Assembly: GCA_003731675.1 (NCBI GenBank)
Contig: RCNQ01000145.1
Coordinates: 1 to 34,318, forward strand
Source: Bacteroidetes/Chlorobi group bacterium ChocPot_Mid
GTDB taxonomy: Bacteria; Bacteroidota; Ignavibacteria; Kapaibacteriales; UBA2268
DNA: 34,318 nt
Direction: 5' to 3'
Both the position numbers and the translations under genes were made by a program. Positions within the stretch are counted from its first letter, which is position 1, and each line of letters opens with the position of its first letter. The notes beneath the pieces were generated by a model. It did no database searches. It saw only the letters and a list, made by a program, of their open reading frames with translations, and was not told where the DNA came from. Shown piece after piece: positions 1 through 16,153 of the stretch.

Positions 1-3000
1 ATAATCTCAGGCAACGAGATAACCGGATTTGGATACGGAGTAGTTGACATGGGAGGTGGTGCATTGATGAGAATCGGGCACAACCAATGGACAAAATACT
101 ACAACAGCAACAACACGATAAGCAACAACGTAATCAAGAATGTAAGTCGTGCAGGAATCTGGTTAGGCTACACAGAGAACGAAAAAGTAACAGGCAACAG
201 GATCTACAACGTAACAGGCTTGGGAGCCAACACATACTTAGAAGGCGGCAACCCAGTCAACTACGATGCAGGAGGAATACTTGCAGGAGGCGACCCATAC
301 CAGACAACATGGAAGGGCTTCAACAACATAGATTTATTAATCTCAGGCAATGAGATAAGCAATGTAACCTCGAACTACATAGCATACGGAATCAAAGTAG
401 AGCAGAGCTTAATAAGCTATCCGAAGACCCCAACAGACACATACTTCCCTGACAGGTCAGAGAACACAACAGTAATGAACAACATAGTCTGGGGCTTAAC
501 AACAGCATACAATGTATCAAGAGTAGGCATCAGGGTATTTACAGAGCGCGTAAGCATAGCAGCAACAAACTTTTTGAATGCCAAAGTGCCGACCTACTTT
601 ACAACAGGCGACAAGATAATGAACAACACAGTAATCATGCCAGACGACGAAGGCAAGACAACAGGTGGATTAGCATGTATCGCATTGCAGCACTCCAATG
701 GAGGCAAAATACTAAACAATGCAGTAGCAATGCTCGACAACTACGTTGACGTAAGATTAATCGGATCGGGAGGTTCACCAGCCGCATCAGCAATATTCTA
801 TCAAGGAGTAATGCCGGGCGAGACAAATGGCTTAGAGTCTAACAGGAATGCATTCTGGCAACCAGCAGCATACTTGCCACACGAAGGACCATCAGCATAC
901 GGATTCGTAGAATTAGATGTGGACGGAAGCTTCATCGAGCCATCAGTAGCAGGACAATACCAGATATTGGGCTACGAGACATTACGTCAATGGAGGAACT
1001 GGACAAATCAGGATTACAACTCAGTAATAGCGAACTTCACAGACGACTTAGAGTACACAGGCACATCTGTACAATACTTGAGAGTAAAGAACCCAAGACC
1101 ATTTGGTTCAGTACTCAATGACAGAGGCTTCAGACTGACAGAATACTTAGGAGGTGGAGTAGGAACATACAATTACGATGCATTTGGCACTCAAAGAGGC
1201 GTAAACGGACAGTTATACGACATAGGAGCTGAAGAATTCGAAGGACAGATGTACTTAAGCGATGTAGAGTTCCAGATGATAAGCTCACCGAGTGCATACA
1301 AATCAGGCGTAGGAACATTCTCAGACGCAGAGCACATAATGACAACCTTACCGATAGACTTCAAGGTAATCTTGAGGAACAGCGGTAACATATTCCAGGC
1401 AGCAACAAAGGTAAGATTGGAAGTAATCAGTACAGATGCTGGGATACACTACTATGACACAGTAACAACAGACATCGTAGTAGCACAGAGCAAAGAAGTA
1501 ACGTTCAAGATACCGAACAGCATAATCAAGACATACTCAGAATTACCAGGAGTAACAGTGCCGTCGAGATTTGACCCGACAATGAAGGCAAACGTAACAC
1601 CGGTTTACACATTCAAAGTAGAGGTACAGGCAGATGAGAACAATGAGAACAACAACGGCGAAGCCGACTTCAGGTTCTACATCAGGCAATCGAATGCCAA
1701 GTTGATGGTAATCAGTGCAGAATATGCCAACACACTTGTAGAGAACGGTGGAACGACAGTAAGGACAGTAGATGAATTAGCAGGAAGATTGAACTACAAA
1801 GCATTGCAGGATGCATTCGAGAAGATGAAGCTATGGCCAAGAATAAACAGAGACATAGACTATCCAGGCGACCAGATGGACACATTCAAAGTTGACGTAT
1901 TCGACAGAATGTCATGGGAGCCGAAGAGTGTAGATTACAGGATGTACAAATATGTATTCTGGTCAGACAGGAACGACTCAAGCGGAAGCCCGTTAGCATT
2001 GAACCAGCTGACAAGATACCAGCAATGGGATTTGAGAGAATTCCTTGATGCAGGAACAACAAACAACAAGAGGAACCTGATAATAGCTAGTCAGGAAGCA
2101 GTAAGAAATGCAAGCTTCAGTGGCGATGCAAAAGCAGTCAAGTTCATGAACGAGACATTGAGAGCAGTTTACACAGACGACACTAAGAAGGGACAAGCCT
2201 TTGGCATAGGAACGAACTGCAACTTGAAGCAGATAAAAGGTGTAGCCTTAGGCAAAGACTTCATCCAATTGGTAAAAGAGACAGGAGCATACTTTGATTA
2301 TCCGACATCGGCAAACAGAGTATACGACATGTTCCCGAAAGTAGGCTTTGTAAGCTTATTCACCAAGGGCGAAGGCATAGCCAAAGAGAGCCATGTATAT
2401 CCGGGCACAACACCAGCTAACCTAAACACAGGCGTAGCAATGACAACATTGACCAAGAACGTAATCTACATAGGTATAGACTGGAGACACTTTGGAGACC
2501 CAGAAGCAATCTTAAGGTCAGTAATGGATTACTACGACAAGAATGGTGGAACAGAGATACCAATCGAATTGGCAGACTTCAATGCAAAAGCAAGGACGAA
2601 CAGAGTAGAAATCAGCTGGGTAACCGAGAGCGAGTTAAACAGTGAGAAATTCGAAGTCGAAAAAGCTGTAGTCAAAGAAGGAGTCAAGGAGAGCTTTGCG
2701 AAGATAGCAGAAAAAGCAGCGGCAGGCAAGAGCAGTATCAAGCTTGAATACGGACCGGTCGTAGACAGGGAAGTAGTCAAAGGCGGACAATACATCTACA
2801 GATTGAAGATGATAGACAAAGACGGAAGATACGCATACAGCAATGAGAGAATGGTAGAAATCGGAGGCGAAGGCTTGTGGTTAGGCGAAGCAACGCCAAA
2901 CCCAGTAGAAGGCATAGCAAAATTCGAGATAGCAACAGGCGACAAGGGAATAGAGATGTACGTATATGACGTCAATGGAAGAGAAATGGGATTGAAGCAT

Positions 3001-3117
3001 GAAATCAAGGACGGACTGTTAGAAATAGACATGAGCGGAGTAATTAGCGGAGTCTATACAGTAGTTTTGAAATCAGGCGATATGATGATAACCAGGCAAG
3101 TTAGAGTCGTAAGATAA
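1..3117 (+). CDS. Large secreted surface protein, 5'-truncated by the window edge: parallel beta-helix (PbH1-type) repeats, Ig/CARDB-like middle region, Fn3-like module and C-terminal T9SS (Por) sorting domain
   Basis: Frame 1 is open from nt 1; IISGNEITGFGYGVVD precedes the first Met at 49, so the true start lies upstream of the window. Repeated xISGNEIxNV / NNxIxNV segments are typical of right-handed beta-helix proteins. The C-terminus (ATPNPVEGIAKFEI...MYVYDVNGREMG...GVYTVVLKSGDMMITRQVRVVR) matches the T9SS C-terminal domain pattern. A strong terminator follows. Confidence 0.8.
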   Translation: MISGNEITGFGYGVVDMGGGALMRIGHNQWTKYYNSNNTISNNVIKNVSRAGIWLGYTENEKVTGNRIYNVTGLGANTYLEGGNPVNYDAGGILAGGDPYQTTWKGFNNIDLLISGNEISNVTSNYIAYGIKVEQSLISYPKTPTDTYFPDRSENTTVMNNIVWGLTTAYNVSRVGIRVFTERVSIAATNFLNAKVPTYFTTGDKIMNNTVIMPDDEGKTTGGLACIALQHSNGGKILNNAVAMLDNYVDVRLIGSGGSPAASAIFYQGVMPGETNGLESNRNAFWQPAAYLPHEGPSAYGFVELDVDGSFIEPSVAGQYQILGYETLRQWRNWTNQDYNSVIANFTDDLEYTGTSVQYLRVKNPRPFGSVLNDRGFRLTEYLGGGVGTYNYDAFGTQRGVNGQLYDIGAEEFEGQMYLSDVEFQMISSPSAYKSGVGTFSDAEHIMTTLPIDFKVILRNSGNIFQAATKVRLEVISTDAGIHYYDTVTTDIVVAQSKEVTFKIPNSIIKTYSELPGVTVPSRFDPTMKANVTPVYTFKVEVQADENNENNNGEADFRFYIRQSNAKLMVISAEYANTLVENGGTTVRTVDELAGRLNYKALQDAFEKMKLWPRINRDIDYPGDQMDTFKVDVFDRMSWEPKSVDYRMYKYVFWSDRNDSSGSPLALNQLTRYQQWDLREFLDAGTTNNKRNLIIASQEAVRNASFSGDAKAVKFMNETLRAVYTDDTKKGQAFGIGTNCNLKQIKGVALGKDFIQLVKETGAYFDYPTSANRVYDMFPKVGFVSLFTKGEGIAKESHVYPGTTPANLNTGVAMTTLTKNVIYIGIDWRHFGDPEAILRSVMDYYDKNGGTEIPIELADFNAKARTNRVEISWVTESELNSEKFEVEKAVVKEGVKESFAKIAEKAAAGKSSIKLEYGPVVDREVVKGGQYIYRLKMIDKDGRYAYSNERMVEIGGEGLWLGEATPNPVEGIAKFEIATGDKGIEMYVYDVNGREMGLKHEIKDGLLEIDMSGVISGVYTVVLKSGDMMITRQVRVVR

Positions 3118-3141
3118 TAGCAGGTCTGAACAATGAAAAAA

Positions 3142-3172
3142 GGGTTGCCGATTACGGCAACCCTTTTTTTTT
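3142..3172. terminator. Rho-independent terminator, probably bidirectional, between convergent genes
   Basis: GGGTTGCCG (3142-3150), loop ATTA, CGGCAACCC (3155-3163): a perfect 9-bp GC-rich stem followed by a T9 run, and preceded by an A6 run that gives a U-tract on the other strand. Confidence 0.85.
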
Positions 3173-3276: not shown

Positions 3277-4467
3277 TTAACATCCTCCCACAACTCTCTT
3301 TTGAGTCTTCTTTACTGGTCCTGCCGATTTATTTTGTTTTATTAAATCAGGAATTATCTTACTTGCCCTCATTCTGAAACGATAAGTATATTTCTCTTCA
3401 TTAGTAGTTGTATCACTGGTAAATTTAGGCTCTAAAATTAATTTTCTAAATTCATTAAAACCACCTTTCAATACCCTAATATTTTTATATCCAAGCTCAC
3501 TTGCAATTATTGCATACTTTCTTTCAGTCAATTCATCATTAGATAAAAATATGTTCACCTTATGCCGTAAAGTCAACACCTTATTAGGCTCCTTCTCAAA
3601 CAAATTATCCAATAAAAATAATGTAGATTTAGGTAAATTCAATTGCTGGTATTCATTAGCAGACCTAAAATCAATTATCTGAATTCTTTTGTCATCACTC
3701 ATTATCCTGCAAGCAAGTTCATCAACTGTAATCTCATCGAGTTGATAAGATTTAACAATTTTTTTATCCTCAACCATTTTCAACAATGTTGCTTTTCTTT
3801 CCGGGAACATAAACGATGACAAAGCAATAAGCAACCCTATTACTCCTAAACTTAGATAATAAGGTGTAAACCGAATCACCGGCTTTTTTATCCCATTAAC
3901 TCGATTTTCAATTATTGACGTAAATACAAAAGCTAACAAAGCCGTAGCAGTTAGTAAAAAAGCAAATAATGACTGAGAAATCCCCAATGTCTCAAACATG
4001 CGTGGATTACCCCAATTAGCTGATTTGTATAATCCTTCAACAATAGGATATCCCTCCGCAAAAATCAGAACACCCAATACAGCACCACCAATAAAAATCA
4101 TAGCATCAATTTTCCCGATAGCTGCTGCACAAACGCTCGTTCCTGGACAAAATCCTCCAATCACAAACCCCAACCCCATAATCAAACCACCTATAATTGC
4201 AGACCACAGAAATGTAGGATTAATATAAATCAAACTAATATCTATCAAACCGAAATGTGCAAGTACCATAACACCAATCATGGCAACAACCCCGGCAGTA
4301 AAGAATACTCTTAATACCGTGAAGTCATAACCATAAAACAATCCGACTAATTTCTTCGATGTCGAAAAGCCTGCTTGTTCAAGAATTGCTCCGAAAAATA
4401 TACCAATTATCAGAGCAACTATGAAATTCAAGTCATTACTAATTATATCAGGAACTAATGGTCCCAT
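3277..4467 (-). CDS. YeeE/YedE-family sulfur-compound transporter half fused to a C-terminal rhodanese-like domain that lacks the catalytic Cys
   Basis: The N-terminal ~220 aa are multi-TM and carry the YeeE/YedE signature GGFCPGTSVCAAA. Residues ~245-340 (IQIIDFRSANEY...RVLKGGFNEF) look rhodanese-like. The active-site loop reads IFLSNDELTER, with Ser309 (codon 3541-3543) where Cys is expected. The protein ends ...KRVVGGC. SD AAGGAGA lies 8 nt upstream of the ATG. Confidence 0.8.
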   Translation of the reverse strand: MGPLVPDIISNDLNFIVALIIGIFFGAILEQAGFSTSKKLVGLFYGYDFTVLRVFFTAGVVAMIGVMVLAHFGLIDISLIYINPTFLWSAIIGGLIMGLGFVIGGFCPGTSVCAAAIGKIDAMIFIGGAVLGVLIFAEGYPIVEGLYKSANWGNPRMFETLGISQSLFAFLLTATALLAFVFTSIIENRVNGIKKPVIRFTPYYLSLGVIGLLIALSSFMFPERKATLLKMVEDKKIVKSYQLDEITVDELACRIMSDDKRIQIIDFRSANEYQQLNLPKSTLFLLDNLFEKEPNKVLTLRHKVNIFLSNDELTERKYAIIASELGYKNIRVLKGGFNEFRKLILEPKFTSDTTTNEEKYTYRFRMRASKIIPDLIKQNKSAGPVKKTQKRVVGGC

Positions 4468-4482
4468 TGTATTATCTCCTTA

Positions 4483-4998
4483 TCATATCCAAAATTTTCT
4501 AAAAAAATAAGCAAATCCATAAGCTCCACCGAATATTGCGAACATTGTAATAATACCTCCGGTGGACATTACTGCCATGCCACTTAAAGCCGCACCACTT
4601 GTGCAACCCCTGCCAAGTTGAGAACCAAACCCCCAGAGCAAACCTCCAATAATTGCCCCAAAAACCCTTATTCTATTTGTTGTCCTTGGACCTTTCTCTA
4701 ACTTAAAATTCAATCGGTTTGAAATCAATCCCGAAATAAAAGCACCAATTAATACTCCCACAATTTCAAAAACTAACCAATTCATCAATGGGCTTCCAGA
4801 ATGCTCCCCCGAATACTCCTTATAAAACTTTGCTGTTTGTGTATGTTCTGGAGCTACTGTTTCAACTGTAGCTACAGTAAAACTTTTGATAGCTCCACTT
4901 GCACCTAACCCTCTACCGGTAATGTAAATCGTTGCAACAAGTAAAATGCCCAACAAAACACCTGCAAGGTAAGGATTCATATATTGTTTCTCTTCCAT
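4483..4998 (-). CDS. YeeE/YedE-family sulfur-compound transporter half
   Basis: 171-aa polytopic membrane protein with the second YeeE/YedE signature GRGCTSGAALSG. It lies 15 nt upstream of the other half and 2 nt downstream of the cytochrome b gene. Confidence 0.8.
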   Translation of the reverse strand: MEEKQYMNPYLAGVLLGILLVATIYITGRGLGASGAIKSFTVATVETVAPEHTQTAKFYKEYSGEHSGSPLMNWLVFEIVGVLIGAFISGLISNRLNFKLEKGPRTTNRIRVFGAIIGGLLWGFGSQLGRGCTSGAALSGMAVMSTGGIITMFAIFGGAYGFAYFFRKFWI

Positions 4999-5000
4999 AT

Positions 5001-5675
5001 CTATTTATCCTCCAAAATTGTTTTATTTTCATCAGCTAATTCCTCTTTCTTCTCTTCACCATCTTCATTTTCCAATTCTTCGTATCCAGTCAACATCGCT
5101 TTTAAATTCGAAGTAATTGTTTCGCCTGTTGTTATCAAATATAAATGAACAACTATAAAAGCAATCAGAATAAAAGCGGCTAAAGTATGCAAAACAGCTA
5201 TAATTTCTAACGATTCAATATTCATCGCTTGTACCCCATGTCTGGTTGGATACCTGTAAAACATATAAAATAAACCCGAAGTTACTATCACAGGAATCAC
5301 AATAATCTTTAATCCGAAATACGTTAATTTCTGCAGTGGATTCAGCTTGCTCAACACAGTCTTTTTTGTCGGATGTGGAGCATTCTTAAAAATTCCAAAA
5401 ATATAATAATTCAACTGAGCTTTAATATTCTTCAAAGTCGGTATATATTGCTTCCATTCACCTGTGGTGAAATGCCAAAATATCGCAAAAACAATAAGAA
5501 TTAAAAACATATACGCTGCTATTGTGTGATATCTCACAGCATCCCTAAATCCAAAAAAACTATATACCCCATGGATTTCAAAACCAGAAAATGCTAAAAA
5601 GAAAATCAACAAAGCTTGCATCCAATGCCAAAAACGCTCAAATGACTTATATACCAAAAACAATTTTTTACTCAT
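5001..5675 (-). CDS. b-type cytochrome membrane subunit (Ni/Fe-hydrogenase / PhsC / FdnI-like cytochrome b family)
   Basis: FERFWHWMQALLIFFLAFSGFEIHG is the N-terminal motif of the cytochrome b561/Ni_hydr_CYTB type. There are four hydrophobic helices with conserved His (HW, HT, HF, HL). ATGA start/stop overlap with the octahaem gene. Confidence 0.75.
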   Translation of the reverse strand: MSKKLFLVYKSFERFWHWMQALLIFFLAFSGFEIHGVYSFFGFRDAVRYHTIAAYMFLILIVFAIFWHFTTGEWKQYIPTLKNIKAQLNYYIFGIFKNAPHPTKKTVLSKLNPLQKLTYFGLKIIVIPVIVTSGLFYMFYRYPTRHGVQAMNIESLEIIAVLHTLAAFILIAFIVVHLYLITTGETITSNLKAMLTGYEELENEDGEEKKEELADENKTILEDK

Positions 5676-7246
5676 TTGACACCTCTCTTATCCTTAAATG
5701 AATTAATAACTCTCAATGCACCATGAACAAATACCCCAGCAAATGATGCAACGATTAATAATAGTCCTAATACTTCAACCGGCTTTGAATAATCCCTCCC
5801 AGGCATATAAAAGTCAGTCAATCCGGCAAGTCTCGAATTATTGCGAGTATGACACTCACTACATTTCACTGCATTCTCTTTTGGAGAAACCATATGATTT
5901 ATAGGCCAATACATCACAGTCTCAATAAAAGACACCTTACCGCTAAATGGCAAATTTGCATCTCTCATTCCTACCTCAGATGCAGTTTGCCAGTTGAAAT
6001 CTTTCCAAAAAGCTCCTTCTCCTTTATTCTCAGCAAAAAGCTTTGGCTGTATTAAAATTCTGTTTACCGGGTCATAAGGTTGCTTGGCTTTATGAATTTT
6101 GACAGGAACAATTTTGGATTCATCATCTGAATATGAACCATTCAATTTATTCAATACCAAAGGTTTTGAAGTATCTTCAATTTTATCCCCTTCCAAGTAA
6201 TGAGTAGCTGTCCCATTGAACCAGATATAATCAGGCTTTACATTTTTCTTCCAAATGAACTTTCCTTTAATTGACATATAAGCATGATTGCCCATACTAT
6301 CTTCTTCCACATAAGGTTCACCATTTCTCAATTTCCCTGCTTGTGACCAATCCCAATACATTTTTGTAGCATTTACTTTTGCATAAGTCGGTATGTGACA
6401 ACTCTCACAAGCAACTTTTAGAGTATGCTTATTCAACATATCATCATCATGAGGGTTATTCGTATGACATTGCTCACAATTATTACGATTTGTACATGTT
6501 GATGCCATTGAAAACAACTTCCCGGAAATAACATGTTTTTCAGTTAAATGACAATCAACACACTGCATATTCATACCATCAGTCCCCATATGCACATCAA
6601 CATCCCTTGTTGGTTCAAACATCGACATCTCCAGGTCTCCATGCTTGACATTGTTGCCTCCACCACCATAAAAATGACACACTCCACAATTTGTCCGTTT
6701 AGGTTTGCCAACATTCTCAGCAATTTTATTAAAATCCAACGTAGCAACCGGAGCTCCACCTTTTTCCTGAGCTTTCACGTAGGTTTCAGTATTGTCATGA
6801 CATACCAAACAATCTATATTAGATGAATCCGTATAAATTTTTCCCTTGGCATCCATACCAAACCCTATATGACACTTAGCACAACTTTCTTCATTCCCCT
6901 TAGTACCAATGCAGAAATTATTTATAGCATTCTTCTTACCAATATATACTATTCCACGCCCCTGAATATATTCTTCTCTTTCCCAGTTCCAGTGATTGGA
7001 CTTCATAATTTCCTTATGCCTTTGATTATGACAGCTAATGCAAGCCAATGTAATCTGTTGAGGAGTAGTGAACTTCTGCTGCAGAATTGCAAATTTAGAA
7101 TGGTCAACCGAAGAAGTAATCTTTTTTGAATATTTCTCCTTCAGTTTCATTAAAGTAGTTGGTTCATATTCATTTTGAGACAAAACCCCAAAAGCAATAA
7201 TAATTATTAAACCAACTAATGCCAATACAACCACTATTTTCTTCAT
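5672..7246 (-). CDS. otr: Octahaem c-type cytochrome, tetrathionate reductase (Otr) family, with an N-terminal signal/anchor and a C-terminal TM helix
   Basis: Eight CXXCH motifs: CISCH, CAKCH, CLVCH, CGVCH, CVDCH, CEQCH, CESCH, CSECH. The N-terminal block CISCHNQ..IMKSNHWNWE...NNFCIGTKGNEESCAKCHIGFG resembles the Otr family as I remember it. Hydrophobic N-terminus MKKIVVVLALVGLIIIIAFGVL and C-terminal helix LGLLLIVASFAGVFVHGAL. Confidence 0.75.
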   Translation of the reverse strand: MKKIVVVLALVGLIIIIAFGVLSQNEYEPTTLMKLKEKYSKKITSSVDHSKFAILQQKFTTPQQITLACISCHNQRHKEIMKSNHWNWEREEYIQGRGIVYIGKKNAINNFCIGTKGNEESCAKCHIGFGMDAKGKIYTDSSNIDCLVCHDNTETYVKAQEKGGAPVATLDFNKIAENVGKPKRTNCGVCHFYGGGGNNVKHGDLEMSMFEPTRDVDVHMGTDGMNMQCVDCHLTEKHVISGKLFSMASTCTNRNNCEQCHTNNPHDDDMLNKHTLKVACESCHIPTYAKVNATKMYWDWSQAGKLRNGEPYVEEDSMGNHAYMSIKGKFIWKKNVKPDYIWFNGTATHYLEGDKIEDTSKPLVLNKLNGSYSDDESKIVPVKIHKAKQPYDPVNRILIQPKLFAENKGEGAFWKDFNWQTASEVGMRDANLPFSGKVSFIETVMYWPINHMVSPKENAVKCSECHTRNNSRLAGLTDFYMPGRDYSKPVEVLGLLLIVASFAGVFVHGALRVINSFKDKRGVK

Positions 7247-7411
7247 ATTTTTTAACCCTTATATCTTATCTTTTAAAAATAAAAAAGACTTTCAATAATT
7301 AATACAACAAACGGTTACAAAAATACCAAGATATTTGTAAATCCCAAAAATAAAAAGAAATATTAAAATGAATTAACCTTTTTTATAGAGAAAAGTCATA
7401 CAAAAATGTCG

Positions 7412-7445
7412 TTCTATGTTGCAAAAATACACTTACAACATAGAA
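7412..7445. repeat. Perfect 10-bp inverted repeat TTCTATGTTG-N14-CAACATAGAA between the two respiratory operons; candidate weak terminator or operator
   Basis: Read directly: 7412-7421 is the reverse complement of 7436-7445. It lies 39 nt downstream of the stop of the NrfD-cytochrome gene on the minus strand. A T5 run follows 5 nt after the stem on the minus strand. Function is not established. Confidence 0.4.
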
Positions 7446-7483: not shown

Positions 7484-9397
7484 TTATTTATCAAACCTGT
7501 TTGGTAAAACAACCCATTTATTATTTTCAAATTTTTCAAATAATTTTCTTTCGTAGATAAACTTCTGTACTTCAAAATGGCATTTTGAGCATTTTGTTAG
7601 ATTCGGATTATTAATTTTAATAAGAGAATCAGTTTTTAATTTTTCCTCATGACAACCAATACACATTTTGTGCAAAGCATCTGTATATGATAAAGTGATA
7701 TATGACTTAATTTCTTTTATTTTTGAATCTGAAGGGATAAGTTGCTTATGACATTTCTCGCATTTTTTAACTGCAAGATTTTTATTTTGAGAACTTTCGG
7801 ATTTTATATTTCTGAATTCAAATCCCTTACTAATATTTTTATTGTGACATTCAAAGCAGGACAAGTTTGCTCCTTGAGATGAACTATGCCAGTTATGTCT
7901 GAAAGCATCACCTTCCTGATACATATAACTGTGGCATTCATAACATCCTGTCGCTTTATCTCCAGGTTTATTCATGTGATGACATTGACCACAACTTATG
8001 CCCTTTTGCTGATGAAAAACATGTTTAAACGCAACACCATAGTTATTCCTGTTACCATCAATGAGCAGTGTATCTGCGCCTCTTGCCTTACTTACTTCAG
8101 TGCTGTCAATTCCCTTCTTCTCAAGTTTTGTCCCTGATATCAACGCAAAGCTCAAAGCAAATGCAAGAACAAACATAAACGAAAATTTTGTTCTGTTAAC
8201 AACTTTGGTCGGTCCCAAATAAATATTGAAAGAATTAAATTTCGGTTTAACTTTTGCAGGAGCATCAGGGTCTTCCGGAGTATGCTCCCATACTTTGAAA
8301 TTTTCGATAAAGAAGAAAAACGCCAACATTGCAAGCGATACTACTCCTGCAGAAATAAATATCTCCATCCATGATGGAAAATAAAATTTACCTATTTCTG
8401 AAAGATTATTTAGATGTGTTAATCCACCAACATTTAACCTGTTAAATACAATTCCGGTTACTCCAGAGAGTGCCGCTATGTAAAGAAAATTGATACTCCT
8501 GGATAATTTGGGGACAGATAGAATTATTAAAGGAATAATCACAGAAATGAAAATTTCCATCCAGAACAAATATGTGCCCCAAGCATTATCATACAAGAAA
8601 ATTCCTGCTCCTCTGAAAATTATGTCTCCAAATCTAAATGCAGAATAAATTCCAATCATCCACAGAGCATACTTTCTCAGCTTTATTAAAATATGATTTT
8701 CAGGTTCTCTCTTATATAGCCAGCTTGTCGTCATGCTTTCAACCATAACCATCATTAAACCAAGATAGATAGCAGAGATAAAGAAAATCAATGGAATTAT
8801 AGGTGAATACCATAATGGATGTAATCTGTAAGGCATTGCTAAAAACAAACTACCTAAAGAAGATTGATGCAACGTTGAGAGCATAATTCCCAAGATAACT
8901 AAAGGTATTCTGATTTTAAATAATACCTTATGAATTTTAGCCAACAATGGGATATTTGGATATTTTTCAAGAACAACTGGTGTAAATTCCAATGTCAGTA
9001 CAGTTAAATAAAGCATTACACACCAGCCAACTTCAAACAAAGGTGAATGAGGATTCCAATAAATAATCAAATGCCAAATATTCCACGGTAGTCCAAGGTC
9101 AAACAACAAACCAACGGCAACAGCAACGTAGCCCAAAAAAGCTGTTAAAATAGCCGCTCTTGATATAGGATGTAACTCCTTCTTCCCAAAAATATAATTA
9201 AATGCCGCTATTACAAATCCGCCTGCTGCAAGAGCAACTCCACCCATAACATCAAACCCAATCCAAAAACCCCACGGGGAATTATCTGTAAGGTTTGTTG
9301 TTACTCCTAATCCATAAATAAATCTTGTAACAGCAACAGCAGATGCAACCCCAAGAATTATCCATAATACAAGTTTTGCCTTACTTATTCTATTCAT
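7484..9397 (-). CDS. NrfD/PsrC/HmcC/DsrP-family integral membrane quinone-interacting subunit fused to a C-terminal hexahaem cytochrome c3-like domain
   Basis: The N-terminal ~400 aa are polytopic with the NrfD-type motif SPWGFWIGFDVMGGVALAAGGF. After an extra TM helix (FSFMFVLAFALSFALISG) there are six CXXCH motifs (CGQCHH, CYECH, CFECH, CEKCH, CIGCH, CSKCH). The first sits in a c3-type context, FKHVFHQQKGISCGQCHH. I prefer the start at ATG 9397 (MNRISKAK...), which has GGGAGG 6-7 nt upstream, over the ORF-track start at 9421. Confidence 0.8.
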   Translation of the reverse strand: MNRISKAKLVLWIILGVASAVAVTRFIYGLGVTTNLTDNSPWGFWIGFDVMGGVALAAGGFVIAAFNYIFGKKELHPISRAAILTAFLGYVAVAVGLLFDLGLPWNIWHLIIYWNPHSPLFEVGWCVMLYLTVLTLEFTPVVLEKYPNIPLLAKIHKVLFKIRIPLVILGIMLSTLHQSSLGSLFLAMPYRLHPLWYSPIIPLIFFISAIYLGLMMVMVESMTTSWLYKREPENHILIKLRKYALWMIGIYSAFRFGDIIFRGAGIFLYDNAWGTYLFWMEIFISVIIPLIILSVPKLSRSINFLYIAALSGVTGIVFNRLNVGGLTHLNNLSEIGKFYFPSWMEIFISAGVVSLAMLAFFFFIENFKVWEHTPEDPDAPAKVKPKFNSFNIYLGPTKVVNRTKFSFMFVLAFALSFALISGTKLEKKGIDSTEVSKARGADTLLIDGNRNNYGVAFKHVFHQQKGISCGQCHHMNKPGDKATGCYECHSYMYQEGDAFRHNWHSSSQGANLSCFECHNKNISKGFEFRNIKSESSQNKNLAVKKCEKCHKQLIPSDSKIKEIKSYITLSYTDALHKMCIGCHEEKLKTDSLIKINNPNLTKCSKCHFEVQKFIYERKLFEKFENNKWVVLPNRFDK

Positions 9398-10232
9398 TTT
9401 TACCTCCCTCTTCCAAGTCATTCATATCTGGTTTTGGATTATCCGAACTTTTTTTCTCTTCCTGTTCCTGACGTCTTTTTATTACCCAATAAGTGCCTGT
9501 CATTACTGCTCCCATTCCCAAGAAAGCGAAAGGTACTGCTCCCATTGCCCATTTGGTTGTATTTGGTAATGGTTCATTTATATCAGGATTACCAACTAAA
9601 TTTCTTCCTTTATCGAGTCTGTGATTATAATAGAATAAAAAGTCGAGAGGACAATCCTTAGAAGTTATATATAAGACATTTGTTCCACCAACTTCTTTTT
9701 CACCATAAATATGGTTCATATATTTTTGTGGTTCATTCGCTATTCTCCTCTTTGCTTCAGCCAGTAACTCATTTCTTTCACCAAATATTGTTGCTCCCGT
9801 AGGACAAGCTGAAGTACATGCTGGTTCTTTTATTTTCCCTTCCTTAATATTATAATAACAAAGAATACATTTTTTTATATAAGGGACAGCATTTTCCCAA
9901 TCATATCTTGGAATACCAAAAGGACAAGCCATCATGCAATACCTGCAACCAAGACATTTCTCCTTATCATAAATCACAGCTCCCATCTCGGTTTTATGCA
10001 AAGCACCGACAGGACATACCGAAGCACAAGCAGGTTCAACGCAATGTCTGCATTGTTTCCTGACAAAATATTTTTGATTAGATAACACGGAAGTCCAGTT
10101 GTTGGCAGATAGTCCGTCATTTTTCTGCCATTCCCTTGGCTTATCGGGAGGTAAATTATTGATTACTTTGCATGCATTAACACATTCAGCACAACCGATG
10201 CATTTTGTTATATCTGTTAATATTGCTTTCAT
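9390..10232 (-). CDS. Four-cluster [4Fe-4S] ferredoxin subunit (PsrB/NrfC/HmcB/DsrO family) with a C-terminal TM anchor and no N-terminal signal peptide
   Basis: Four Cys clusters: CIGCAECVNAC, CRHCVEPACASVCP, CLGCRYCMMACP and CILC...CTSACP. C-terminal helix AMGAVPFAFLGMGAVMTGTYWVI is followed by KRR. The N-terminus starts directly at MKAILTDITKCIGC, with no twin-arginine motif. ATGA overlap with the upstream gene. Confidence 0.8.
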   Translation of the reverse strand: MKAILTDITKCIGCAECVNACKVINNLPPDKPREWQKNDGLSANNWTSVLSNQKYFVRKQCRHCVEPACASVCPVGALHKTEMGAVIYDKEKCLGCRYCMMACPFGIPRYDWENAVPYIKKCILCYYNIKEGKIKEPACTSACPTGATIFGERNELLAEAKRRIANEPQKYMNHIYGEKEVGGTNVLYITSKDCPLDFLFYYNHRLDKGRNLVGNPDINEPLPNTTKWAMGAVPFAFLGMGAVMTGTYWVIKRRQEQEEKKSSDNPKPDMNDLEEGGKNE

Positions 10233-10942
10233 ATCGGTTCTCCTTCCTTGCCTAAAGCAATTGTTACTTCTTCTGGTGAATCAGGTGCAAATTTCCAGCT
10301 TCTCGCTGTTATCCATTGACTAATCGGCATCAAAATACAATGAGCAATTTTTGTAAAAGGTAATAGTACAAAAATCAACTCTCCACTCAATATATGTGCT
10401 AACAAAAATGCTTTGTAAGAGTCTGGATTCAATACTGAATTTCCACAAATAAATCCTGAAATGAAAGGGATAATTAGAAGAATAGGCCAAATAAAATCTT
10501 GTTTTCGGCTAATACTCCTCGATGCTCTATTCGAAACTCTCAAAACTAATATAATCAACCCAAAAACAATCGTAAGCAAGGTCAACCAATCAGCCAAACT
10601 CTTAGACAAAGTCAGCCCAAGCCAACTTACACCAATTGAATTTTCAAATAACAGAGCATGGTCAAACAATAAAATAGGGGTAAAAAGTAAACCGAAATGA
10701 AATATTATTGAAACCACACTATACAACGGTTTCACTCTTAGCGACCTTATTGGAAAAACGAATCCGAAAGTCAGTTTCATTACATAATTCATTGGTAATT
10801 TTTTTTCTCTTGATTTACCTTTTGCTTCAAAACCGTTGATAATTGAAAGAATCAACACTCTTGCCAATCCAAGTAGCATAATTGCAAATGTAAATCTAAA
10901 CAGAGGTCCTTTTGCAAATTCTAACCAAGCATCCATATACAT
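10229..10942 (-). CDS. NarI/DsrM/HmcE-like membrane b-cytochrome subunit
   Basis: 237 aa with about 5 TM helices and conserved His in the helices (IIFHFGLLF, FDHALLF, LLAHILSG, KIAHCIL). Its position next to a CCG-domain Fe-S protein is typical of DsrMK/HmcEF-type modules. Confidence 0.65.
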   Translation of the reverse strand: MYMDAWLEFAKGPLFRFTFAIMLLGLARVLILSIINGFEAKGKSREKKLPMNYVMKLTFGFVFPIRSLRVKPLYSVVSIIFHFGLLFTPILLFDHALLFENSIGVSWLGLTLSKSLADWLTLLTIVFGLIILVLRVSNRASRSISRKQDFIWPILLIIPFISGFICGNSVLNPDSYKAFLLAHILSGELIFVLLPFTKIAHCILMPISQWITARSWKFAPDSPEEVTIALGKEGEPI

Positions 10943-11004
10943 TCCCTTACTTTATTTTTTATTTATCTTTGTTTTTCAAACTATTTCAATCATTTCTGTA
11001 ACAA

Positions 11005-12384
11005 TTATTTATCAAAAATAATTGCTTTTAAAATTAAGTCATGCAAACCAACTAACTCACCATCAACTTTATTGTCTTCCATTAATTCTCTGAATTGCTT
11101 CTTGCAATTAGCACATGGAGCAACTACCCAATGGGCTCCTGTATCGATTATTTGTTGTGCTTTTCTTCTTCCACCTACAGAAGTTCTATATTTTCTTATT
11201 TCATCAATAGAAACAGTGCCACCTCCACCTCCGCAACAATAATTTTCACTTCTGTTTGGTGTCATTTCAACAAAATCTTTGCAGAAAGATTTCAGAATTT
11301 CTCTCGGTTGCTCGATTATCCTTGATTGTCTTGCTATATTGCACGGGTCGTGGTATGTCACTCTTTCGGTAACCACATTAGGGTCAAGTTTTATCTTGCC
11401 TTCTTTAATTAATTTATGTGTTAATTCAATGCAATGAACAATCTCAGGTGGATTTCCGCCTTCCCAGTAAGTTGGCATAAACCATGCACTTCGTGTTGCG
11501 TGCCCGCATTCACCCATAAGTATTTTCTTACATTTTAGTCTTTTAAATTCTTCTGCAATGACCAAAAGATTTCTTTTTAAAATTGCATCACTGTAAAATA
11601 AACCATAATTTATTGCATCATTTACTTTTGAACTCATTGTCCAGTTTACTCCCCCGGCACTCATAGCACAAGCTATACCCATCAAAGATTCAGCTTCCAT
11701 TAGCCAATCCGAAACCGGAGTAATAAACATATATTCCGCACCTTCAACATCAATAGGAAATTTAACATCAACTCCATGCATTTCTTTAATTTCTTCTTCC
11801 AGGAATTCTATTGAATCAGCCATACCAATCCACGGAATAGCAGATGTGTTCCTTGTCTTGCCTTCTAACTGTTCTCGTGTGGATATTAATAATGCTCTTG
11901 GCACCAAATCCATTTCAGCCATTATATAGCGTGCAAGATGTGTTAATAAACCATGGTCTATACCCATAGGACATTCCAAAACGCATTTTCTGCAAGCAGT
12001 ACATTTCCAAAAAGATTCTGCCATCTCATCAATATCTTCTTCTTTGAGTTCATAGCCACCGAATAATCTTCCGTATATTGAACCTTCAAGAGAAAAATAT
12101 CTTCTGTAAATTCTCAATAAAAGTTCCGAACGATAACATGGTATATCCTTAGGGTCTTGAGTTACCTGATAAATATGGCAGGCAACACTACATCTTGAAC
12201 ATTTTGCAGATATTTTTACATATTGCTCTAAGATTGGTCTGTAGTTTGAATGCTTAAGAATCACTGCAAAAATCTCTAAAAATCTTTTGACCCTATCTCC
12301 TTTCGGTGGTTTTTCAATGATATATTTCATTTCAGGAGTTGTTTTACCTTCTGCTTTATTCCAAATATTTTTTTCTTTAAACAT
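11005..12384 (-). CDS. HdrD/DsrK/HmcF-like iron-sulfur protein with CCG domains (heterodisulfide-reductase-like catalytic subunit)
   Basis: Ferredoxin-type motifs CSRCSVAC and CTACRKCVLECP. C-terminal CCG-type motifs HDPCNIAR...NYCCGGGGG...APCANCKKQF, and an earlier GECGHATRS-containing repeat. No TM segment or signal peptide. Confidence 0.75.
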   Translation of the reverse strand: MFKEKNIWNKAEGKTTPEMKYIIEKPPKGDRVKRFLEIFAVILKHSNYRPILEQYVKISAKCSRCSVACHIYQVTQDPKDIPCYRSELLLRIYRRYFSLEGSIYGRLFGGYELKEEDIDEMAESFWKCTACRKCVLECPMGIDHGLLTHLARYIMAEMDLVPRALLISTREQLEGKTRNTSAIPWIGMADSIEFLEEEIKEMHGVDVKFPIDVEGAEYMFITPVSDWLMEAESLMGIACAMSAGGVNWTMSSKVNDAINYGLFYSDAILKRNLLVIAEEFKRLKCKKILMGECGHATRSAWFMPTYWEGGNPPEIVHCIELTHKLIKEGKIKLDPNVVTERVTYHDPCNIARQSRIIEQPREILKSFCKDFVEMTPNRSENYCCGGGGGTVSIDEIRKYRTSVGGRRKAQQIIDTGAHWVVAPCANCKKQFRELMEDNKVDGELVGLHDLILKAIIFDK

Positions 12385-15661: not shown

Positions 15662-16153
15662 ATGCCAAGACCACATAAATGTAGAAGGATATCATCTAAC
15701 CCTGATGTAGTTTATTTTAAACCGGCAGGGCTGAGAATAAAGGAGCTTGAGGAAATATCTTTAACTTTAGATGAATATGAAGCTATACGACTGGCAGATT
15801 ATGAAGGATTGTATCAGGAAAATGCCGCCGAAAAAATGAATATTTCCAGACAAACTTTTGGAAATATTATTAATTCTGCACATCAGAAAATAGCAGATTT
15901 CCTACTTAATGCAAAAGTTTTAGTAATCAAAGGAGGTGTCATTGAAATATTAAATGAAAAAAATAAAAAGTTCAGATGTAAAGAATGTAACAATACTTTC
16001 AAGAGAAATATTAATACATTTAATACAATCAATTGTCCAAGATGTAAAAGTTCCGAAGTACATCAAATTAGTCTTTATGAAAATTTTGAATTTAAAAATC
16101 AAAGAAGAAAAAGAATGTGTAAAAGAAACAGGGAAGATGAAGATGAAAAATAA
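15662..16153 (+). CDS. DUF134 (UPF0251) family predicted DNA-binding protein with an added C-terminal zinc ribbon and a basic tail
   Basis: [10 protein letters not shown]...YFKPAG...[48 protein letters not shown] is the characteristic DUF134 sequence with a sigma-70 region-4-like HTH. The C-terminal CKECNN...CPRCKS forms a C4 zinc ribbon. Confidence 0.85.

Follow-up and report, generated by a model that had tools for sequence, protein, structure and literature searches.

Octahaem cytochromes c of the tetrathionate reductase (Otr) family have been a structural curiosity since 2004; they are loosely annotated, and their physiological role is debated, with tetrathionate, nitrite and hydroxylamine as the substrates under discussion. 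OTR of Shewanella oneidensis (1SP3) is a soluble periplasmic protein. Here we compare it, and several other described systems, with a four-gene operon on the minus strand (3277-7246) of contig RCNQ01000145.1, the whole stretch of which (34,318 nucleotides) we call the window. The window, with a G+C content of ~34%, is a contig of an Ignavibacteria-type metagenome-assembled genome that is 89% complete and whose class is placed in Bacteroidota by GTDB. The operon encodes an Otr-family cytochrome, a cytochrome b and two halves of a YeeE-like channel, one of which runs on into a rhodanese-like domain with a Cys-tipped tail. With somewhat more confidence than doubt, we favour the reading that it specifies a membrane-bound, quinol-dependent periplasmic reductase of an inorganic sulfur compound, equipped with its own sulfur hand-off device.

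Every part of the operon belongs to a known family, and the logic of a reductase served by a periplasmic sulfur carrier has precedents. SoxY is a periplasmic sulfur carrier with a C-terminal GGCGG swinging arm, and periplasmic subunits of the FdnH/HyaA type are anchored on their cytochromes b through a C-terminal transmembrane (TM) helix. YeeE is a demonstrated thiosulfate importer that needs the Cys-bearing partner YeeD (PMC7449682, PMC11073785). Half-proteins of YeeE are known as PmpA and PmpB, and a hand-off has been proposed in which the SoxY arm feeds the YeeE-like SoxT (PMC11582611). The described periplasmic Cys carriers include Sud, which serves Psr, and SoxYZ, which is proposed to deliver to SoxT (PMC11582611, PMC12142623). 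A pair of Otr and cytochrome b561 has already been mentioned in an Ignavibacteria genome (PMC7509429); in the literature we found no paper describing an Otr-cytochrome b-YeeE-arm operon or a Gly-Cys-tailed rhodanese carrier.

A conserved operon around a membrane-anchored Otr

The four open reading frames lie head to tail (7246-5672, 5675-5001, 4998-4483 and 4467-3277). Genes 1 and 2 share an ATGA stop/start overlap (5672-5675, minus strand), and gaps of 2 nt and 15 nt separate genes 2 and 3 and genes 3 and 4, respectively; when re-read, the coordinates agree with the tight packing described in an earlier note on this DNA. A bidirectional hairpin that resembles an intrinsic terminator (3137-3168; 14-bp stem, -23.8 kcal/mol, z -6.98, with 0 of 200 shuffles folding equally well) lies between the operon end and a convergent gene for a protein with a type IX secretion system (T9SS) tail. 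On the other side, a terminator-like hairpin on the minus strand (7412-7445), downstream of an Hmc-like operon, sets that operon apart from the otr promoter region (7247-7411). Since hairpins flank the unit and no terminator-like site was found within it, the four genes are likely co-transcribed. A sigma-70 promoter scan returned a number of sites that was not above chance, and a match to the Bacteroidota-type promoter consensus TAnnTTTG at 7325-7318 is a consensus match read by eye alone.

The otr-cytb-yeeE unit is a genuine, strongly conserved operon. In its own family, eight other genomes from different genera carry the order Otr-CytB-YeeE_A-YeeE_B_Rhd, with Otr identities of 51-82%, and one genome of another family has Otr, YeeE_A and YeeE_B_Rhd without the cytochrome b. 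In a phylum sample of 401 genomes, ~31 of the ~36 genomes with the fused YeeE_B_Rhd gene have a same-strand Otr gene at most 3 kb away; in this sample no YeeE kit (YeeE_A, YeeE_B and the rhodanese-like arm) neighbours the Otr genes of a Chlorobia-like family or the soluble paralogues of ~460 amino acids. A scan of species representatives gave 80 loci at 45-75% identity. Seven are cut by contig ends; all 73 with enough upstream DNA keep the four-gene order, as the earlier note's model requires. Among the 73 is the locus of Ca. Tepidiaquacella Ch128a, for which the authors described "Otr and cytochrome b561" only (PMC7509429).

The linkage extends to more divergent enzymes. A metagenome scan for divergent Otr, which yields contexts without taxonomy, found the kit beside Otr on nine contigs with G+C contents of 51-70% and arm tails of GGC, GGCG or GGCD. 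A multihaem::cytochrome b fusion serves as quinol module at most of these loci, and a separate CytB gene occurs in two (L198 and L202). In an Otr tree built with FastTree, the YeeE-linked enzymes group into two clades, one of 24 anchored and one of 14 unanchored rows, and both have 100% Shimodaira-Hasegawa-like support. The kit is present in every member of both clades that has enough downstream DNA; solo and NrfD-fused Otr lie elsewhere in the tree. Some of the YeeE-linked Otr (L189, L192, L193 and L215) are ~985-1,007 amino acids long, with an extra C-terminal haem-containing extension; ahead of the YeeE genes at these loci, a separate cytochrome b gene was not detected.

Gene 1 (5672-7246, minus strand) encodes an octahaem cytochrome c of 524 amino acids. 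TIGR04315, the model for octahaem cytochromes of the tetrathionate reductase family, gives it 570.5 bits (571 in the genome search) against a cut-off of 375, and it aligns with Shewanella OTR 1SP3 over 416 residues (E value 3.9e-126). An N-terminal signal or anchor occupies amino acids 1-22, and the eight CXXCH motifs begin at C69, C122, C146, C187, C229, C257, C280 and C462. Lys104 and Cys112 correspond to Lys56 and Cys64 in 1SP3 (GKKN...NNFC aligns with 1SP3 residues 55-64). All eight haem motifs, K104 and C112 are invariant in 77 Otr homologues, and by equivalence with Lys56 we predict that K104 is the ligand of the active-site haem. These features put the protein in the Otr family, as had been claimed, and not in the HAO, ONR or MccA clades.

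The 1SP3 alignment ends at amino acid 469, and beyond it lies a C-terminal TM anchor at about amino acids 486-510 (5717-5791, minus strand; hydropathy peak 489-507). The eight motifs and this helix are as the earlier note described them. The soluble Shewanella protein shares the family, the eight CXXCH motifs and the Lys56/Cys64 equivalents; the window Otr differs in its TM helix with a conserved His, and in coming with its own cytochrome b and a YeeE/Cys-arm kit. This His508 is found in 99% of the 77 homologues, and the Gly-x-x-x-His pattern of the anchor helix is present even in far more distant anchored Otr representatives. His508 could serve the cytochrome b as a haem b ligand or as part of its quinol site.

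Gene 2 (5001-5675, minus strand), whose start overlaps the Otr stop, encodes the b-type cytochrome of 224 amino acids that had been claimed at this position (PF01292, Ni_hydr_CYTB, 100.2 bits against a gathering score of 30.1). Among NCBIfam models, that of the thiosulfate reductase cytochrome b PhsC (NF011582) matches it best, at 103.2 bits; this is short of the cut-off of 204, and by sequence the protein is not a PhsC equivalog. Seven His residues (H17, H35, H50, H68, H101, H163 and H177) are invariant among 65 sequences, and the protein is a probable menaquinol-oxidising, dihaem membrane partner of Otr. Contact between the two is supported by the conserved anchor His and by natural Otr::CytB single polypeptides (P0126, P0174, P0189, P0135 and P0139); these fusions back the membrane-docked complex that the gene order had suggested. 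The arrangement recalls the FdnGHI, Hyd-1 and PhsABC modules, which have a cytochrome b of the same Pfam family and a single C-terminal anchor on the periplasmic partner. In the window, however, that partner is a multihaem cytochrome c rather than an Fe-S subunit, its anchor carries the conserved His, and the cytochrome b scores below the PhsC cut-off.

A split YeeE channel and its Cys-tipped arm

Genes 3 and 4 together span the Sulf_transp family (PF04143) of YeeE/TsuA from E. coli and S. thermophila (6LEO). Gene 3 (4483-4998, minus strand) encodes YeeE_A, a PmpA-like C-half of 171 amino acids (helices H8-H13; profile positions 175-309). Amino acids 1-191 of gene 4 (3895-4467, minus strand) make up YeeE_B, a PmpB-like N-half (H1-H6) with an H7-like helix (profile positions 4-156), in which the AlphaFold2 (AF2) model has helices at 11-31, 37-71, 87-104, 120-148 and 165-191. 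Each half keeps one of the two Cys residues, Cys91 and Cys293, that are essential in S. thermophila YeeE (PMC7449682): Cys132 of YeeE_A, in the motif RGCTSG, equals Cys293 and is invariant in 89 sequences, and Cys107 of YeeE_B, in the motif GGFCPGTS, equals Cys91 and is invariant in 84. The earlier assignment of two YeeE/YedE halves with one Cys signature each is thus upheld. The split matches that of PmpB and PmpA, with the gene for the C-half coming first in the window. YeeE/TsuA, by contrast, is one polypeptide of nine TM helices with an adjacent TusA-like YeeD; here there are two genes, no TusA-like YeeD match, and TsuA model scores of 45 and 21 bits for the halves against a cut-off of 400. 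YedE/FdhT selenium models and TsuA models match the halves about equally, weakly and far below their cut-offs.

Gene 4 had been taken for a plain YeeE half. The N-half is there, but the gene is no bare half, since its 396 amino acids include extra TM helices, a rhodanese-like domain and a Gly-Gly-Cys tail. Unlike YeeE/TsuA, the N-half retains its H7-like helix and is fused to a sixth TM helix (amino acids 202-220; 3808-3864, minus strand), seen in the hydropathy profile and as an AF2 helix. This helix is predicted to return the chain to the periplasmic side and corresponds to the N-terminal signal anchor of stand-alone TM-rhodanese homologues. The rhodanese-like domain that follows (amino acids 241-345; 3433-3747, minus strand) is predicted to be periplasmic; it scores 36.4 bits on PF00581 against 22.2, is modelled by AF2 with a predicted local distance difference test score (pLDDT) of 85-92, and leads Foldseek to single-domain rhodaneses. 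Profile matches of gene 4 are likewise to single-domain rhodaneses, with Sud (1QXN) weakly among them. The active-site loop reads IFLSNDE, and neither 9 nor 84 homologues have a Cys at the catalytic position; from its sequence the domain appears to be catalytically dead. A basic tail (amino acids 346-396; 3280-3432, minus strand) contains about 12 Lys and Arg residues and ends in Gly-Gly-Cys (codons 3288-3280). G394, G395 and C396 never vary among 84 sequences, the AF2 model shows the final ~18 residues as disordered, and unfused or divergent homologues of the arm end in -EGC, -MGC, -GGC, -GGCG or -GGCD. We propose the tail as a candidate swinging arm that carries sulfur.

On which side of the membrane does the arm lie? 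In the YeeE crystal structure the chain starts outside the cell, helices H1-H6 bring it back to that side, and H7 crosses inward (PMC7449682). With the same N-out start, H7 and one more helix, the rhodanese-like domain would be periplasmic. Hydropathy and the AF2 model agree on six hydrophobic helices in gene 4, and the Lys plus Arg counts of successive loops alternate as 0, 3.0, 0, 1.0, 1.5 and 3.9 (84 sequences), as an N-out start predicts; the loop charges of YeeE_A agree with an N-in/C-in arrangement. In the unfused form of the kit, the N-half stops after the H7-like helix with a Lys-rich tail, and the rhodanese gene opens with MKK..KK and a hydrophobic stretch. Given the N-out start, the helix count, the loop charges and the signal-anchored stand-alone homologues, the arm probably lies in the periplasm beside Otr.

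This topology bears on a simpler relay, in which Otr makes free thiosulfate from free tetrathionate, the YeeE pair imports it, and the rhodanese/GGC part sits in the cytoplasm as a TsuB/YeeD-like acceptor that decomposes thiosulfate. Such an acceptor would need five hydrophobic helices after the N-out start where gene 4 has six. It would also sit uneasily with the typical signal anchor of the unfused rhodanese homologues, and with the Lys-rich end of the unfused N-half, which fits the cytoplasmic side and would join the anchor's cytoplasmic N-terminus. We therefore regard the relay as unlikely, even though YeeE does import thiosulfate with a Cys-bearing partner (PMC7449682, PMC11073785), the tail of gene 4 is basic, and a built-in acceptor would make sense in a genome that yielded no separate TusA-like gene. 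On the predicted topology we rejected a TsuB-like role of the rhodanese part in the cytoplasm.

Sud and SoxY offer the nearest comparisons for a periplasmic arm. Sud of Wolinella succinogenes shares the rhodanese fold and is encoded with a respiratory sulfur reductase, and the window domain is predicted to be periplasmic. Sud, however, holds its sulfur on a Cys of the active-site loop, whereas the window domain lacks that Cys and has its conserved Cys as the last residue of a disordered tail; it is also membrane-tethered or fused to the channel, unlike Sud. With SoxY it shares a motif and no homology: a terminal Gly-Gly-Cys (GGCG in divergent members) on a flexible, predicted-periplasmic C-terminus. 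The Ig-like fold, SoxZ partner and oxidative context of SoxY contrast with a rhodanese-like fold, no SoxZ partner and a reductive context here, and scans of Pfam and NCBIfam gave no match to the SoxY or SoxZ families among the four operon proteins.

The kit in other sulfur operons and the likely route of sulfur

The YeeE kit is a general accessory of periplasmic sulfur enzymes, recruited by an Otr clade. An unfused, paralogous version (C-half, N-half and a TM-rhodanese ending in Gly-Cys) closes operons of the order MerR-PhsA/PsrA-like-PsrB-PsrC in many Bacteroidota (L047, 9425-15436; L120-L123, L126 and L132-L138). The signal-anchored rhodanese-like protein of these operons has a Pro/Lys-rich tail that ends in Gly-Cys, and the catalytic subunit matches PhsA best (507 bits; cut-off 694). 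In another Bacteroidota family (L124, L125 and L127-L131), the kit has a tail ending in -RMGC or -YGC and follows the gene for a tandem-rhodanese sulfurtransferase, which has a weak match to the ExtH selenite/tellurite model (75 bits against a cut-off of 200).

The recurrence of the kit with Phs/Psr-like operons and a tandem rhodanese, together with a cytochrome b nearest to PhsC, argues for a sulfur substrate rather than nitrite. It also makes a carrier-mediated hand-off more likely than simple product uptake. The Phs/Psr-like reductases that share the kit make no thiosulfate, which speaks against the simple relay. The earlier note had proposed that the Otr product feeds directly into YeeE uptake. 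The link to sulfur is supported, as the kit occurs with Phs/Psr-like enzymes too; the relay of free thiosulfate needs revision, given that a Cys-tipped arm is fused to the channel. We consider it more likely that the coupling is a carrier-mediated hand-off of sulfane or thiosulfonate sulfur and is not specific to tetrathionate.

Could selenium or tellurium take the place of sulfur? A multihaem reductase, a rhodanese-like carrier and a YedE-type selenium transporter might cooperate on an oxyanion of either element, and the ExtH match and the even scores of the YeeE halves on YedE/FdhT and TsuA models are what such a system might leave behind. Each of these matches falls far short of its cut-off, the reductases that accompany the kit resemble Phs/Psr, and no selD scored above its cut-off in the 89%-complete genome. 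On this last count we rejected a selenium role, and the selenium or tellurium reading as a whole strikes us as very far-fetched.

From the families of the parts, the conserved residues, the gene order, the natural fusions and the reuse of the kit by Phs/Psr-like operons, all directly established, we infer the following scheme, with its direction of electron flow, its substrate, its hand-off and its periplasmic arm. Menaquinol would be oxidised by the four-helix cytochrome b, and electrons would pass to Otr, held on the cytochrome b by its C-terminal helix much as FdnH and HyaA are held on theirs. They would travel through the Otr haems to the Lys-ligated active-site haem, where a sulfane-containing sulfur compound may be reduced. 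The two YeeE halves would assemble into one YeeE/TsuA-like pore, with the N-half running on via two extra helices into the periplasmic, putatively dead rhodanese-like domain and its flexible basic tail with a single terminal Cys. This Cys arm could capture sulfane or thiosulfonate sulfur species and shuttle sulfur among the bulk periplasm, the active site of Otr and the mouth of the channel pore, which would then pass thiosulfate or sulfane sulfur into the cell.

Which compound is reduced? Tetrathionate reacts spontaneously with thiols to give an S-thiosulfonate and thiosulfate. On the strength of this chemistry and of homology, tetrathionate is the leading candidate. A distant, acidobacterial otr from the environment is induced 36-fold by tetrathionate (PMC8528874), which gives indirect support to such an activity and to sulfur over nitrogen. 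Polysulfide and thiosulfate stay real alternatives because Phs/Psr-like enzymes share the kit. A bolder version of the scheme, possible in our view although we doubt it, holds that Otr does not act on a free anion: its true substrate would be sulfur that the Gly-Gly-Cys arm carries as a persulfide, polysulfide or S-thiosulfonate. The operon would then be a reductive counterpart of Sox, and the same arm-and-pore kit a general adaptor for Phs/Psr-type molybdoenzymes. If so, a tethered SoxY-like arm on a dead rhodanese scaffold would present sulfur to a multihaem reductase and thread the product into the YeeE pore to which it is fused.

The likeness to SoxY also raises the question of direction. 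Running oxidatively, Otr would act like TsdA or SoxXA on thiosulfate or on sulfur bound to the arm, electrons would reach quinone via the cytochrome b, and the arm would be a SoxY-like carrier. The tetrathionate/thiosulfate couple, at ~+198 mV (cited in PMC8528874), is unfavourable for reducing the menaquinone expected in these anaerobes, and the paralogous kit sits with reductive Phs/Psr-type enzymes. What speaks for oxidation is a tail that resembles SoxY in ending GGC or GGCG, the adjacency of otr to soxY/soxZ variants in lucinid symbionts (PMC11237559), and the presence of both Otr and DsrA in Chlorobia-like genomes of the phylum, though the Otr of those genomes is without the kit. Overall, we judge the oxidative direction improbable.

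Several points weigh against the reductive hand-off that we prefer. A sister group of anchored Otr has the cytochrome b and lacks the kit, so Otr can work without it. The stretch just past the sixth TM helix of gene 4, like the tail, is rich in Lys and Arg, which on its own would mildly favour the cytoplasm. With the AF2 model of gene 4, whose TM part has a moderate pLDDT of 57-79, Foldseek matched the rhodanese part alone and missed YeeE. Nor was YeeE 6LEO found when the PDB was searched with gene 4 by sequence and by profile, and the YeeE assignment accordingly rests on Pfam and the conserved Cys residues. PF01206 (TusA-like YeeD/TsuB), the family of a cytoplasmic acceptor for imported sulfur, has no match in the 89%-complete genome.

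A further such point is that Shewanella Otr reduces nitrite and hydroxylamine in vitro (cited in PMC11237559), and genome papers list Otr as a possible nitrite reductase (PMC7509429). On that footing, the window Otr would serve nitrogen respiration or detoxification and the YeeE genes would be unrelated passengers. Passengers would hardly be expected to keep their order in every complete locus, across two Otr clades and G+C contents of 34-70%, this kit is otherwise attached to sulfur enzymes, and the cytochrome b of the operon is nearest to PhsC. We consequently give a nitrite or hydroxylamine reductase very little credence.

The widely conserved, obligate pairing of Otr with a sulfur channel and a Cys-tipped carrier offers a concrete, testable hypothesis for the natural function of Otr. 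In addition, a gene that joins the carrier and a YeeE half in one polypeptide is a "Rosetta stone" for the transfer, proposed yet unproven, by which periplasmic Cys carriers would supply YeeE-type transporters. Sediments, aquifers and wastewater commonly harbour Ignavibacteria-type bacteria, and for this reason the operon may matter for the cycling of tetrathionate, thiosulfate and polysulfide.

Neighbouring genes and sulfur metabolism of the source genome

Directly upstream of otr lies an Hmc/DsrMK-like operon (7484-12384, minus strand) in which Pfam identifies a CCG/HdrD-like protein, a NarI-like protein, a four-cluster ferredoxin and an NrfD::hexahaem c3 fusion. Otr might receive electrons from it by a second route. 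In the loci that we compared, an Hmc-like operon adjoins otr only within the same genus (L034), and we rejected it as a conserved otr neighbour. Homologues of the NrfD::hexahaem c3 protein (7484-10232 in the window) are fused elsewhere to an Otr domain as polypeptides of ~1,090 amino acids (P0146, P0181, P0151 and P0246). These four representative clusters are joined by ~31 metagenome loci (L141-L171), and the fused genes are always preceded by an HmcB-like four-cluster ferredoxin gene and often followed by PsrA/PsrB-like genes. The fusions suggest that NrfD-c3 modules are alternative electron partners of Otr, and because of them the Hmc-like neighbourhood of the window otr may be non-accidental.

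The source genome also has genes for DsrA and DsrB side by side on another contig (C12, 3372-5643; L140); the two proteins score 566 and 500 bits, respectively, and exceed the curated cut-offs. A Dsr sink for imported sulfur is therefore possible in this genome. In its Ignavibacteria-type family, dsrA occurs in 12 of 25 genomes, and in seven of eight that bear the kit; elsewhere in the phylum sample, none of ~30 kit-bearing genomes has dsrA. As a general cytoplasmic sulfur sink of the module, DsrAB was rejected: it is a trait of the family and not part of the module. Neither PAPS reductase nor CysK/CysM was found above cut-off in the 89%-complete genome, which neither supports nor excludes assimilation.

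A gene for a putative DNA-binding protein of the DUF134 family (15662-16153 in the window) lies no more than a few kb from the otr operon in several genomes (L034, L040, L055, L065, L066, L070, L095 and L105), in some cases immediately downstream, and its product may be a regulator of the operon. At the far end of the window, the gene for a T9SS-tailed beta-helix protein (1-3117) is a compositional outlier, with a G+C content of 43-45% against ~33% for the rest of the window.

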